Source: an uncultured Actinomycetes bacterium (lineage in GTDB: Bacteria > Actinomycetota > UBA4738 > HRBIN12). Taken from it: a stretch of 64,000 nucleotides of DNA. Below, one piece after another: positions 19,362-25,445 of the stretch. Under the pieces are notes generated by a model that worked only from the letters and a program-made list of their open reading frames with translations, had not been told where the DNA came from and ran no database searches. Location: positions 32,001 through 96,000 of the forward strand of contig CAVPIB010000001.1 in NCBI GenBank assembly GCA_963704885.1, given 5' to 3'. How positions within the stretch are numbered: position 1 is the stretch's first letter; every line of letters begins with the position of its first letter. A program made the position numbers and the translations under genes.

Positions 19362-21618
<2,257 letters not shown>

Positions 21619-21808
21619 CGAACCTCCTCGAACTAGGGGAGCGAAGTCTCATCCGCCCGGCAACCCGGCCGGGAACCCGGGAAGTATAGGGAATGGCTTG
21701 ACGCCCCGACCTGCGAGGAAGAGCCGGGAAGCCGTCATCCTCCGGGCCATCTGACCCTTTGCCGCCTCGTGGGCGAACCCCTAGCATCCGAACGAAGCAA
21801 CGCACGAT

Positions 21809-21861
21809 GGGGTGCCGGGAAGCCGGGTCGGCAGGACGTTCCGGTACCCCTTTTCTGTGTT
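21809..21861 (+). ncRNA. Candidate cis-regulatory RNA (copy 1): conserved hairpin competing with an intrinsic terminator
   Basis: GCCGGGAAGCCGGGTCGGCAG at 21814-21834 is 19/21 identical to the nhaA leader. Alternatively 21809-21820 pairs with 21839-21850, followed by TTTTCTGTGTT. Confidence 0.6.
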
Positions 21862-21872
21862 CCAAGGAGACC

Positions 21873-23246
21873 ATGAAGACGAGGCGAGCGACCAGGATCG
21901 GCGTCTTGTTGTTCGCGTTCTCTTTCGCGGTGATGGCCGATCCGGTGTCCTCGGTCGCCTATGCGATCGAAGCGGCGCTTCGCGCATTGAAGGGCAACCT
22001 GACCCTTCTCCTCCCGACCATGGTGCTCGTCCTCGCGATCATCTACCTGGTCAAGGTCAACTACGACCAGCTGATCCACCGGTTCCCCGAGGGCGGAGGC
22101 GCGGTGGCCGCGACCGGCGCGGCGTTCGGCGAGGGCTGGGCGTTCCTGCCGCTGGGAGCGCTGATCGTCGACTTCGTGCTCACGATCGCGATCAGCGTGG
22201 CGGCGGCCTCCTCGGCCGTCATCGCGTACTTCCCCTCGCTCCAGGGTGCGCGGACGATCATCGCGCTCGCCCTCCTCTGCTTCGTCGCTGGGCTGACGTG
22301 GTTCGGCCACATCGGACGGAGCGTGTTCGCGGCGATGACAGTGCTGTTCATCCTCGCCGTCGTACCGATCGTGCTGTTCGGGTACCTGGCGCCGCACTCG
22401 ATGGGCGATGCGCCTTTGCAAGGGACCGGCAGCGGGTCTTCCATCCTGCTCGTGCTCCTGGCCTTCCCGGTGGCGATGGCTCTGGCGACCGGGGTCGAGG
22501 CGCCCGCGTCCGCGATCGCGCAGCTGGGCCAGTTGGACGACGTGCAGAAGGAACGGTTCGGCCACCGGACCCTCTACCTGACGGTGCTGACCACCTCCGC
22601 CATAACGCTCGCGATCGCGGGCCTGGCCTTGAAGCTCCACGTCGGGGTACCGGCCGAGGGCAGCACCATGATCGCCGACGTAGCGAAGACGGCCACGGGC
22701 AACGGTGTCTTGTTCGCGTTCTTCCAGCTGACCAGCTCGCTGCTGCTGCTCGCGGCCGCCGCATCGTCCTTCCAGGCTGGTCCGGGCCTGCTGAAGGCGC
22801 TCGCCCGGCACACGCGGGACAACGGCGAGGAGGTCGGGATCCTGGCCCCTCCGCTAGGGCGGACGAACCGCCACCACACGCCCTACTGGAGCGTCACCGT
22901 CTACCTCGTGATCGCGGGGATCGTGGTCGTGGCCGCGGGGGGACGCGACCAGGAGCTCGTGCTCTTCTACGCCGTCGCGGTGTTCGTCAGCTTCCTGGCG
23001 GGGCTGCTGTCGATGGCGCGGTTCTCACACCAGGAGCGCGACCGCCTCCACGTGGTGATCAATATCATCGGCGCCGGCGTGGTGGCCTTCACGATCCTCG
23101 TGAACCTCCAGCGCGGGTACCCACTGGCCTCGCTCGCGGCGGGGCTGGCGATCTCTGGCGTGTTCTTCTGGCAGTGGGACCGCCTCGGCCGGCCGCGCGG
23201 GATCGCGATGGTCGAGATGCAGGCCGAGGCCGAGATCCAGGAGTAG
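21873..23246 (+). CDS. Second KimA-like APC-fold transporter, membrane domain only
   Basis: MADPVSSVAYAIEA, FPEGGG, IVDFVLT and TGVEA; AAGGAG RBS; no long cytosolic tail. Confidence 0.85.
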   Translation: MKTRRATRIGVLLFAFSFAVMADPVSSVAYAIEAALRALKGNLTLLLPTMVLVLAIIYLVKVNYDQLIHRFPEGGGAVAATGAAFGEGWAFLPLGALIVDFVLTIAISVAAASSAVIAYFPSLQGARTIIALALLCFVAGLTWFGHIGRSVFAAMTVLFILAVVPIVLFGYLAPHSMGDAPLQGTGSGSSILLVLLAFPVAMALATGVEAPASAIAQLGQLDDVQKERFGHRTLYLTVLTTSAITLAIAGLALKLHVGVPAEGSTMIADVAKTATGNGVLFAFFQLTSSLLLLAAAASSFQAGPGLLKALARHTRDNGEEVGILAPPLGRTNRHHTPYWSVTVYLVIAGIVVVAAGGRDQELVLFYAVAVFVSFLAGLLSMARFSHQERDRLHVVINIIGAGVVAFTILVNLQRGYPLASLAAGLAISGVFFWQWDRLGRPRGIAMVEMQAEAEIQE

Positions 23247-23256
23247 CGAGCCACAT

Positions 23257-23275
23257 CTAGTCCGTATCAGACTAG
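23257..23275. repeat. CTAG-ended mini-hairpin CTAGTCCGTATCAGACTAG (copy B), overlapping the nhaA stop
   Basis: Its reverse complement matches 6063-6080 at 16/18. Confidence 0.5.
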
Positions 23276-24634
23276 ACCTCGGCGGGCGTTCGTCTCTCCC
23301 GCCCAGCGGAACAGCATGTAGCCGATCGCGGCGGCAAGGATCGAGGCCACCAGGATCGCAACCTTCGCCTCTGCCAGGAGCGGCGACTGGCCGAACGCCA
23401 GATCGGCAACGAACAACGACACCGCGAATCCGATCCCTGCCGTGGTGGCGAGTCCGGCCAGCGCCCCCCACCCCACCCCTTCGGGCAACTTGCCCAAGCC
23501 GAGCTTGACGGCGGCTAGGCTCGCCAGCCAAACACCGAGGAACTTGCCGACCACGAGCCCCAGAACGATCCCCAGCGCGATACGGCTGCTCGCCGCCTCG
23601 CGCAACGCGGCCGCAGACAGCTCGACGCCGGCGTTCGACAGGGCGAACAGCGGCAGGATCAAGAAGCTCGACCACGGAAGGAGGAAGTGTTCGACCCGTG
23701 CGAGAGGCGACACAGCCTCCTTGGACAGTTGCGCGAGCCGCAGCCACCAGTGCGCGTCCGCGTCGGGGGGAGACGGGTCATCGACCGTTTCGTCCGCGGT
23801 TCGGTGCGCCTCCTCGCTCACGGCCTTCGGGCGCTGGAACGGCACGGCGGGCGCGAGCAGGCCGAGGATCACGCCGGCGATGGTTGGATGGATGCCGGAC
23901 CTCAGGATCGCGAACCAGAGCAGGACCCCGAGGATGACGTAGACAGTCGTCGCACGGACGTGGAGGTTGCCCAAGGCTGCGATCAACAGGACCAGCATCA
24001 CGGCGATCAGCAGCGAGACCGGTTTCACCCCGCCCGAATAGAACAGGGCGATGACCATGATCGCACCGATATCGTCCACGATCGCGAGGGTGAGCAGGAA
24101 CGGCTTGAGAGAAGGAGGCGCGAACCTGGCCGCAAGGGTAAGCGCGCCCAAGGCGAAGGCAACGTCGGTCGCCATAGGGACGCCCCACCCCTCGGCACCG
24201 GGCCCTCCCGCGTTGACAGCCAGGTACAGCAGCGCCGGCACGACCATCCCGCCCAGGGCCGCGATCATCGGCAGCGCGGCGGCCCGCCACTCTCGGAGCT
24301 CGCCGGTCGTCAATTCGCGCTTGATCTCAAGGCCCACGAGCAGGAAGAAGAAGGTCATGAGACCGTCGTTGACCCATCCGCGCAGATCCTCCACTACGAC
24401 CCATGACCCGATCCGAAGAGACGCCTCCGTGTGCCACAGCTGCGCGTAGCCCTCACGCCACGGGGAATTCGCCCAGACCAGGGCTACGACCACGGCCACG
24501 AGCATGAGGAGGCTGCCGGCCGTGGACGTCCGCATGAACTCCTGCAGCGGACGGAGAACCACTCGAGGAACGAGACGGTCGGAACTGGCGAACGGGGTGC
24601 GCAGCCCTTCGCTCGGGGGGCCGGTGTCGACCAT
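23267..24634 (-). CDS. nhaA: Na+/H+ antiporter NhaA
   Basis: WVNDGLMTFFFLLVGLEIKRE, GWGVPMATDVAF, LAIVDDIGA, SGIHPTIAG and LPLFALSNAG; ATG 24634 with a GAGGTG RBS. Confidence 0.96.
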   Translation of the reverse strand: MVDTGPPSEGLRTPFASSDRLVPRVVLRPLQEFMRTSTAGSLLMLVAVVVALVWANSPWREGYAQLWHTEASLRIGSWVVVEDLRGWVNDGLMTFFFLLVGLEIKRELTTGELREWRAAALPMIAALGGMVVPALLYLAVNAGGPGAEGWGVPMATDVAFALGALTLAARFAPPSLKPFLLTLAIVDDIGAIMVIALFYSGGVKPVSLLIAVMLVLLIAALGNLHVRATTVYVILGVLLWFAILRSGIHPTIAGVILGLLAPAVPFQRPKAVSEEAHRTADETVDDPSPPDADAHWWLRLAQLSKEAVSPLARVEHFLLPWSSFLILPLFALSNAGVELSAAALREAASSRIALGIVLGLVVGKFLGVWLASLAAVKLGLGKLPEGVGWGALAGLATTAGIGFAVSLFVADLAFGQSPLLAEAKVAILVASILAAAIGYMLFRWAGETNARRGLV

Positions 24635-24649
24635 GGTCACCTCACCCTT

Positions 24650-24676
24650 CTGCCGACCAGTCTTCCCGGCGCACCG
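24650..24676 (-). ncRNA. Candidate cis-regulatory RNA (copy 2) forming most of the short nhaA 5' UTR
   Basis: Minus strand reads TATCCT(-10)-N6-CGGTGCGCCGGGAAGACTGGTCGGCAG-AAGGGTGAGGTGACC-ATG. Confidence 0.6.
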
Positions 24677-24758
24677 GGCGACAGGATAGCCGTCGCCGCG
24701 GCCTCGGATGACCCGGATGGTTGTGGGACCCATGCCGCACCCGTAGGCTGTCGGCGTT

Positions 24759-25445
24759 TTGGCACAGGGCCGTCACGTTTCCTCATCCTCCCGCATCAAG
24801 CTCGCGATCCTCGCCATCGGCGGGGTCGTGGTCGTCGCCGCGGTGATCCTTGCCTTCGTACCCAACGGAGGCGGGGGTAGCGAGGGACCCTTCAAGCACG
24901 ATCCCGAGACCCCTCCGTTCGAGTTCGTGACGGCGAAGGTCCTCTCGGTCCCGACCAGTCCTGATGCCGATGAGGCCGCGTTGCAGACCAGAGCCGAGGC
25001 ACCGGCCGGCGAGGTCACCAAGGCCATGGACGCCTTGTACACCAGCGCATTCCTGGATCCGGTCAACTGGCAGGACGGCACCTACGACGACGTCTGGACC
25101 TTGTTCGATCCGGGATCGGGGACCGAGGCGCAGGCTCAGATCGAGGTCGTCACCGCGGGAACGGGCGCCGGCGCCGTCTTCGACTCGATCGTGCCGATAG
25201 GAGACTCGACCCTCAGCGCGAAGGTCCTGTTCGATCCCCAGGACGAGCCCTACTCCGTGATCGCGATCGTGAGGTTCAAGGCCAGGGGCAGCGGCCTGGA
25301 CGGCCAGGACGTCGAGATCATGAGCAGCGGGCAGTACGTGTTCCAGAGGGTCGATGGCTCGTGGAAGGTGGTCTCTTTCAAGGTGTTGCGAGACGACGAG
25401 ATGCGGGTGCGTCGCTCTCCGAGCCCGTCCGGGAGTTCGGTGTGA
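24759..25445 (+). CDS. Membrane-anchored exported hypothetical protein (start uncertain)
   Basis: One N-terminal TM helix, then an acidic extracellular domain; stop overlaps the LCP start (GTGA). Confidence 0.7.
   Translation: MAQGRHVSSSSRIKLAILAIGGVVVVAAVILAFVPNGGGGSEGPFKHDPETPPFEFVTAKVLSVPTSPDADEAALQTRAEAPAGEVTKAMDALYTSAFLDPVNWQDGTYDDVWTLFDPGSGTEAQAQIEVVTAGTGAGAVFDSIVPIGDSTLSAKVLFDPQDEPYSVIAIVRFKARGSGLDGQDVEIMSSGQYVFQRVDGSWKVVSFKVLRDDEMRVRRSPSPSGSSV

Follow-up and report, generated by a model that had tools for sequence, protein, structure and literature searches.

Introduction

To our knowledge, the sensing of Na+, Li+ and alkaline stress in Actinomycetota is poorly known, and the Na+ and Li+ riboswitch classes that we know of are rare. 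In the portions of the published accounts on which we draw, Li+-I (the nhaA-I motif) is described as turning expression ON, often via terminator competition (PMC9646797; PMC5737381), and as made up of the paired regions P1 and P2, of which P2 has a conserved loop, the tested representative of the class being alphaproteobacterial, from Azorhizobium (PMC9646797). Li+-II (nhaA-II), located upstream of nhaA and an ON switch for Li+, is there said to share neither sequence nor architecture with nhaA-I (PMC9646797), and the Na+-I (DUF1646) regulon is given as a set of non-homologous Na+-related genes that includes antiporters, Na+ ABC and ATPase exporters and others (PMC9337991; PMC5737381). According to the same portions, the known Na+ and Li+ classes adopt two-hairpin or larger folds, with tested representatives from Azorhizobium and Brevundimonas, and the representatives described belong to phyla other than Actinomycetota (PMC9646797; PMC9337991; PMC5737381). 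Here we analyse a 64,000-nt stretch of contig CAVPIB010000001.1 (hereafter the window, in whose positions all coordinates are given), part of a 3.0-Mb genome in 20 contigs. In it, two convergent cation-transport genes, nhaA and a gene for a KimA-like permease, each carry a copy of the same short motif in their leader. We propose that both copies probably belong to a widespread 25-nt cis-acting leader RNA, a riboswitch-like ON switch that is undescribed as far as we found: full-text searches of open papers, without their supplements, returned no description of the motif, and an earlier listing is possible.

Results

The original prediction read the motif either as a variant of the nhaA-I, nhaA-II or DUF1646 RNAs or as an undescribed actinobacterial class. 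The first option is contradicted by Rfam 15. Using both gathering and permissive thresholds, no family was found at the leaders in the window, in 20 relatives' loci or in a 161-nt leader searched at E ≤ 10, and the permissive scans gave only chance-level matches to unrelated families. The best match in the genome to nhaA-I (RF03057, 55 model positions, gathering threshold 37 bits) scored 23.9 bits and lay on another contig, with none at the leaders; at E ≤ 10 there was no match in positions 21600-24900, in the 20 relatives' loci or in the 161-nt leader. Likewise, nhaA-II (RF03038, 84 positions, threshold 70.4 bits) reached 20.6 bits elsewhere in the genome and Na+-I/DUF1646 (RF03071 'Sodium', 55 positions, threshold 40.5 bits) reached 15.4 bits, neither of them with a match at the leaders.

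The motif resembles Li+-I (nhaA-I) and the Na+-II variants in being a cis-acting leader RNA that precedes nhaA most often and other cation-transporter genes besides. However, it is a single 5-bp hairpin within 25 nt, whereas nhaA-I, in the portion of the source used here, is built from P1 and P2; and it occurs in Actinomycetota and Chloroflexota, whereas the nhaA-I representative described there is alphaproteobacterial. With Li+-II it shares the position upstream of nhaA, although it resembles neither nhaA-II nor nhaA-I, and with Na+-I it shares the breadth of the regulon, but neither taxa nor fold. The motif displays the generic architecture of a riboswitch, that is, a conserved structured element of the 5' untranslated region (UTR), in sense orientation, whose strands overlap the expression platform. 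The very small aptamers preQ1-I and guanidine-II (mini-ykkC) are of similar size and very highly conserved, with little room for covariation, but their ligands and sequences are unrelated to the 25-nt motif, which matched no Rfam family. By analogy, the motif appears to share the regulon and the working mode of the known ON switches, not their membership.

In the window, copy 1 (21-mer GCCGGGAAGCCGGGTCGGCAG, 21814-21834, + strand) precedes the KimA-like gene and copy 2 (21-mer GCCGGGAAGACTGGTCGGCAG, 24670-24650, - strand) precedes nhaA. As predicted, the two 21-mers are identical at 19 of 21 positions. They are the sole matches in the window at up to 3 mismatches (0.01 expected; two or more matches in 0 of 100 shuffles) and the sole matches across the 3.0-Mb genome at up to 2 mismatches, where a reversed control pattern gave none. 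The genes are also as predicted. The product of nhaA (23267..24634, - strand, 455 aa) is a Na+/H+ antiporter NhaA (PF06965, E 1.2e-141; TIGR00773, E 8.6e-119). The gene on the + strand (ATG at 21873 to stop at 23246, with a Shine-Dalgarno (SD) sequence AAGGAG at 21864-21869) encodes a 457-aa APC-family permease, assigned by structure: the protein has no Pfam or NCBIfam match, and its residues 20-383 match the solved structure of the K+ transporter KimA (6S3K, E 1.4e-22). Homologues of this gene carrying the motif are found at loci L088, L119, L120, L157 and L166.

The 21-mer is real, but the conserved unit is 25 nt long and begins 5 nt further upstream. Its consensus, drawn from 152 non-identical instances and from 110 aligned instances, is GGNGY-GCCGG-GAAGNCUGG-UCGGC-R or, by position, G(-5) G(-4) N G(-2) Y, then GCCGGGAAGNCUGGUCGGC, then R. 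Positions -5, -4 and -2, which lie outside every search pattern, are G in 152, 150 and 150 of the 152 instances, and the sequence upstream of -5 is random. In the window, the unit of copy 1 spans 21809-21833 (+): tail GGGGU (21809-21813), 5' strand GCCGG (21814-21818), loop GAAGCCGGG (21819-21827, with a rare U-to-G change at 21825), 3' strand UCGGC (21828-21832) and A (21833). That of copy 2 spans 24675-24651 (-): tail GGUGC (24675-24671), GCCGG (24670-24666), loop GAAGACUGG (24665-24657), UCGGC (24656-24652) and A (24651). A covariance model, R1, built from 100 of the 152 instances, scores the two units at 42.1 and 41.9 bits, respectively, against 17.3 bits for the next best match in the genome.

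The unit forms a 5-bp hairpin, which we call P1 (GCCGG/UCGGC, with a G.U pair on top), bearing a 9-nt loop and a 5-nt 5' tail. Compensatory changes in relatives uphold this hairpin, predicted originally as GCCG/CGGC. In the 110 aligned instances, all 550 cells of the five core pairs hold standard pairs, G4.U14 is invariant, and the variant cells (G1-C17, U1-A17, U0-A18 and G0.U18) all retain pairing; three double changes are more than any of 500 column shuffles gave. A further sample contributes two more cases of U1-A17 and one of A4-U14, so that the variants of P1 total 5 double compensatory changes, 2 compatible single changes and 1 C·A mismatch. The loop is invariant save for its N and for a U that is recurrently replaced by G, as in window copy 1 and at L184, L208, L212 and L213. 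Immediately outside P1, positions -1/+19 read U/G in 119, C/A in 28, U/A in 21 and other combinations in 19 of 187 instances (C/G once), a strong covariation (mutual information z 21.5) but not that of a Watson-Crick pair. C(-1)/A(+19), the combination of copy 2, is present in 28 of the 31 instances having C at -1. U.G and C.A(+) are isosteric wobble pairs, and we take this covariation as a signal at the RNA level, short of proof. Two further structures were considered. A pseudoknot between the variable positions -3 and loop position 9 was rejected, since the two do not covary as Watson-Crick partners (U/U in 85, U/C in 31 of 187), and a two-tetrad G-quadruplex using the GG/GGG/GG/GG runs would lose its fourth G run in the U1-A17 variants.

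The motif is tightly linked to its downstream genes. As downstream gene of each motif we took the open reading frame (ORF) starting after it with the best G+C at third codon positions (GC3), scanned with Pfam; the same procedure on the opposite strand served as antisense control. The 147 sense ORFs include 59 NhaA (PF06965) and 35 Na_H_Exchanger (PF00999), 94 of 147 together, whereas the 140 antisense ORFs, 49 of them with some family, include none of either. The other sense ORFs are CBS (5), DUF2254 (5), PPDK_N/phosphoenolpyruvate (PEP)-utilisers (4), ABC ATPase (3), Mrp (2), Abhydrolase (2) and AA_permease_2 (KimA-like, 1), with one each of TrkH, TrkA_N, SulP, STAS, NfeD, CitMHS, Na_Ca_ex, Glyco_transf_28, LCM and Acyl_transf_3; 21 have no family, among them the KimA-like protein of the window and two further KimA-like proteins. 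The regulon thus holds NhaA, CPA1/CPA2, Mrp and Na+/Ca2+ exchangers, NatA-like ABC ATPases, and KimA-like and Trk K+ uptake proteins. From the side of the genes, 39 of the 95 NhaA matches (in 73 genomes) of a 151-genome phylum sample have an R1 match upstream on the same strand, 36 of these at 39-139 nt from the first domain residue of NhaA; a single R1 match lies near an NhaA gene on the other strand, and NhaA accounts for 37 of the 69 R1 matches. Divergent gene pairs have one sense copy for each gene (e.g. L062, L127, L141). All 9 matches of a sample labelled Chloroflexi (L134 included) precede cation-transporter genes, namely Na_H_Exchanger (6), NhaA (1), Na_Ca_ex (1) and Cation_efflux (1). 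These results bear out two expectations of the original prediction: the element occurs in 5' leaders in sense orientation only, and Na+/H+ antiporters and other cation transporters are strongly over-represented downstream of it.

R1 separates its matches cleanly, with 111 at or above 36.7 bits in 100 loci and the next at 26.5 bits. It matches all 13 genomes of the window's genus, 18 of 21 in the order of G381, 42 of 151 genomes (30 of 116 genera) in an even sample of the phylum, and 88 of 151 genomes (63 of 102 genera) in the class of G344, which contains Streptomyces-like genomes. Two of the 20 lowest-scoring matches of the class sample (31.7 and 30.8 bits) are false positives inside enzyme genes. 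The motif is therefore wide in Actinomycetota and without Rfam match, as the proposal of a new actinobacterial class had it, but it is not confined to that phylum: R1 also matches 8 of 151 genomes in the phylum of G434, whose record is labelled Chloroflexi, in part on megabase contigs. An exact 20-mer scan of one genome per species gave at least 120 loci; among the 120 listed, 118 have titles of Actinomycetota (Streptomyces, Nocardia, Mycobacterium, Micrococcales, Acidimicrobiia, Gaiellales and Solirubrobacterales) and 2 of Chloroflexota metagenome-assembled genomes. The same sequence recurs with 1-2 mismatches in leaders of order relatives, and a pattern search of 294 genomes of the order at up to 3 mismatches was noisy, matching 294 of 294, with the reversed control matching about as often. 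Genomes flagged as unpublished contribute 6 of the 16 rows of the helix counts in alignment A2 (and 2 of the 3 A-U rows), 7 rows each in alignments A1 and A3 and in model R1, G235 in the genus tally, and G310, G370, G405, G431, G601, G609, G618, G623 and G629 in the phylum and class tallies.

In both window leaders P1 competes with other folds, of two different kinds, as had been predicted. The 5' arm of copy 1 (21809-21820) can pair with 21839-21850 in a 12-bp stem, followed directly by the U-rich tract TTTTCTGTGTT (21851-21861); this G+C-rich stem plus the U tract in UUUUCUGUGUU has the makings of an intrinsic terminator (21809..21861, +). The stem is part of the minimum-free-energy fold (-26.5 kcal/mol, z -2.51, equalled by 3 of 200 shuffles), and the terminator fold reaches -29.5 kcal/mol, compared with -18.0 when P1 is enforced. 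A simple promoter and terminator scanner found nothing at either window leader; its rule allows loops of 3-8 nt, and the loop of this terminator has 18 nt. Under a strict rule, by which 8 or more of 10 pairs must form with the 5' arm and the 8 nt that follow must hold 4 or more U, 19 of 166 instances have a terminator, most of them from the window's order. In 16 of these 19 the terminator helix is 98% paired over 150 cells, compared with 52-65% in slid controls. One of its pairs has changed in a compensatory way (G-C to A-U, in 3 sequences) and six have changed on one side only; the 3' arms vary only so as to keep pairing, G.U/G-C exchanges included. The terminators come in three designs, which enlist the 5' tail and the 5' strand of P1 (window copy 1, L198), the 5' strand of P1 and the start of the loop, followed by U7 (L196 and L204, of lower-G+C Chloroflexota), or the 3' strand of P1 (L015, L021, L023, L030). 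Since all three designs exclude P1, its formation should mean read-through.

Copy 2 abuts the ribosome-binding site, again as predicted, with the SD-like AAGGGUGAGG read at 24649-24640 (-). Its minimum-free-energy fold reaches -28.0 kcal/mol, compared with -22.3 with P1 enforced. Here, UGGUC and GGUCGG of the motif can pair with GACCA (24638-24634, overlapping the AUG at 24634-24632) and with CCGGCC (24624-24619, downstream of the AUG), a pairing at the start codon that may be regulatory. In the nhaA leaders of the genus, the SD abuts the motif and CCGACC lies just after the AUG. More widely, CCGRCC occurs within 80 nt downstream in 50 of 151 instances, compared with 23, 19 and 10 in three controls, and in partition-function folds the pair probability of P1 is ~0.1 with the real downstream tails and ~0.25 with shuffled ones.

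A predicted -10 hexamer lies at a preferred distance from the motif. TANNNT ends 4-35 nt before the motif in 168 of 189 instances and 6-8 nt before G(-5) in 108 of them, with a mode of 7 nt (69 instances); the other spacings, in 81 of 189, extend up to ~50 nt. Given the usual actinobacterial spacing, most transcripts are predicted to start 0-2 nt before the motif. Both -10-like hexamers of the original prediction are present in the window: TATCCT (24688-24683, -) ends 7 nt before the first G of copy 2, the modal spacing, and TAGCAT (21782-21787, +) is separated from copy 1 by 21 nt. Hexamers of TAGCAT or TAGGAT type recur upstream of the motif in the genus.

Discussion

We propose the following mechanism, which we hold to be more likely than not. 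The strands of P1 would also be needed for an alternative, silencing structure, either an intrinsic terminator (copy 1 and its relatives, and Chloroflexota) or a helix enclosing the SD and the start codon (copy 2 and most Actinomycetes). By stabilising the fold of tail, P1 and loop, the effector would block the alternative, and the transporter gene would be expressed. The ON polarity is suggested solely by the mutually exclusive helices. We regard it as very probable that the element is a cis-regulatory RNA switch. That an effector binds the RNA directly, making it a riboswitch in the strict sense, has in our judgement an even chance. We think it possible, but less likely than not, that the 25-nt tail-hairpin is itself the sensor. 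In that case it would be the smallest natural riboswitch for a monovalent cation or pH, reading Na+/Li+ load or alkalinity in a pocket formed by its invariant loop, its GGNG tail and the wobble pairs found at both ends of P1 (G4.U14, and U.G or C.A at -1/+19), and controlling a salt and alkali regulon. The content of the regulon points to Na+/Li+ load or alkaline stress; Na+ or Li+ as the effector itself we hold to be a rather doubtful assignment.

Several observations weigh against this proposal. P1 alone is weak (~-7 kcal/mol) and lies 11.5 (copy 1) and 5.7 (copy 2) kcal/mol above the competing folds, and shuffled sequences are as stable as the two window leaders, flanks included (z -0.93 and -0.15). 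The near-invariance of the motif leaves few covariation events to count, with 5 double changes, and the three U1-A17 cases among them may go back to a common ancestor; the further sample contains a C1.A17 mismatch (L206) and one uncertain G4-C14, and -1/+19 is unpaired in 19 of 187 instances. The case for dedicated anti-sequences in leaders of translational type is mixed: next to the excess of CCGRCC, the motif forms duplexes with downstream sequence (-25.6 kcal/mol) that are matched in energy by duplexes with coding (-26.3) or upstream (-25.8) sequence, and for translational platforms the ON state is assigned by inference. Finally, the sharp 6-8 nt spacing to the hexamer could also come from a promoter role at the DNA level, and symmetric changes in GCCG...CGGC would also be kept under a dimeric DNA-binding protein.

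The same switch might instead be read by a conserved RNA-binding protein that recognizes the tail-hairpin and so governs termination or the access of ribosomes, which would make it a case of protein-mediated attenuation and not a riboswitch. All the evidence on architecture is equally compatible with such a protein; near-invariance of loop and tail, unpaired bases included, is typical of protein sites as well as of ligand pockets, and the hairpin is very small for an aptamer, although those of preQ1-I and guanidine-II are of similar size. However, no candidate RNA-binding protein travels with the motif, the antisense neighbours being diverse (among the 140 ORFs, MarR 3, TetR 2, PucR-like 3, KdpD 4 and others), and since two phyla, with genomes far apart in G+C content, carry the motif, the partner protein would need an equally wide spread. 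We consider this explanation unlikely, if still a serious contender.

The points made above about spacing and symmetry lead to a different explanation, in which the motif is a DNA operator, an imperfect palindrome GCCG-N11-CGGC over the transcription start, bound by a repressor of cation transporters. The dyad is partial, with 12 of 18 positions symmetric around the variable base, and the compensatory-looking changes of P1 are symmetric too. Yet the motif keeps a strict sense orientation, to the point that divergent gene pairs carry duplicated copies instead of one shared site, and the asymmetric positions (GGA versus ACC) and the 5' tail are invariant. Position 4/14 is G/T in the 110 aligned instances, which is non-complementary in DNA; against the sharp peak of spacings (108 of 189) stand the 81 that fall elsewhere, up to ~50 nt; the 3' arms of the terminators evolve to pair with the motif, G.U pairs included; and no regulator gene is consistently adjacent. 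Taken together, this makes an operator improbable. We give even less credit to a 5'-terminal element that senses nothing, be it a hairpin for mRNA stability, the target of a trans-acting small RNA or a short leaderless ORF, which we consider very improbable. It would suit a motif at the predicted 5' end of the transcript that holds GUG triplets and G-rich stretches targetable by a C-rich small RNA, but the genes involved are specific to cation transport and thereby point to specific regulation, and the overlapping terminators imply a decision between two folds. The leaderless peptide was rejected, given that all codon positions are equally invariant and that the sole variable inner base would change the amino acid.

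The element precedes ~40% of the nhaA genes in the even phylum sample and is present in 88 of 151 genomes of one large class, and it ties antiporters to K+ uptake proteins, CBS proteins, DUF2254 and PEP-utilising enzymes. If the proposed leader RNA is a sensor, the salt and alkali regulon under its control would extend to over half of the genomes sampled from the class with Streptomyces-like genomes, and to some Chloroflexota. Were the RNA to sense directly, it would be an exceptionally compact sensor of ions or pH, with a bearing on RNA-ion recognition and on the building of biosensors; were a protein to read it, the motif would be a handle for finding a phylum-wide regulator.

Other features of the locus

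A second convergent pair of motif-bearing genes, ~2.8 kb apart, is found in the same genus (G240:C5:77080-79955; L166 and L170). It consists of a KimA-like gene with a terminator-like stem and nhaA, so that one relative at least has kept the two-copy arrangement of the window. Between the convergent genes of the window, a 7-bp inverted repeat (TCTAGTC...GACTAGA, 7-nt loop, 23256-23276) lies in the 20-nt gap and overlaps the stop codon of nhaA. It has no U tract, and from its sequence may be a terminator hairpin shared by both directions.

The 255-nt intergenic region of copy 1 contains, further upstream than the predicted promoter, two partial copies of the 5' half of the motif, CCGGGAAG and GCCGGGAAG, at 21677-21684 and 21723-21731 (+). 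The region holds 3 of the 15 CCGGGAAG sites of the window, and the 9-mer is over-represented across the window generally (8 found, 1.18 expected). On its far side, divergent from copy 1, lies a gene for a membrane pyrophosphatase (PF03030, 19621-21618, -); the same divergent gene adjoins a motif-bearing NfeD gene at L030.

Some of the less common downstream genes recur. Proteins of ~820-830 aa with PPDK_N and PEP-utiliser mobile domains are encoded directly downstream of the motif in 4 of 147 cases, and stand-alone CBS-pair proteins of ~150 aa in 5 of 147, plus 2 more (for both groups, loci L081, L093, L125 and L141, and L012, L025, L039, L046, L111, L209 and L210).

Finally, the gene divergent from nhaA (24759-25445, +) encodes a protein of ~220 aa that has a membrane anchor at its N terminus and matches no Pfam family. 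A gene of this kind is also divergent from the motif-bearing gene at nine loci of order relatives (L004, L007, L009, L011, L014, L020, L025, L029 and L032), where the latter is a CPA-type exchanger in seven cases and otherwise a CBS gene or DUF2254. These proteins are homologous, with 20-30% identity to that of the window and invariant W, F and G columns. The anchored protein keeps company with the leader, and not with any particular transporter.

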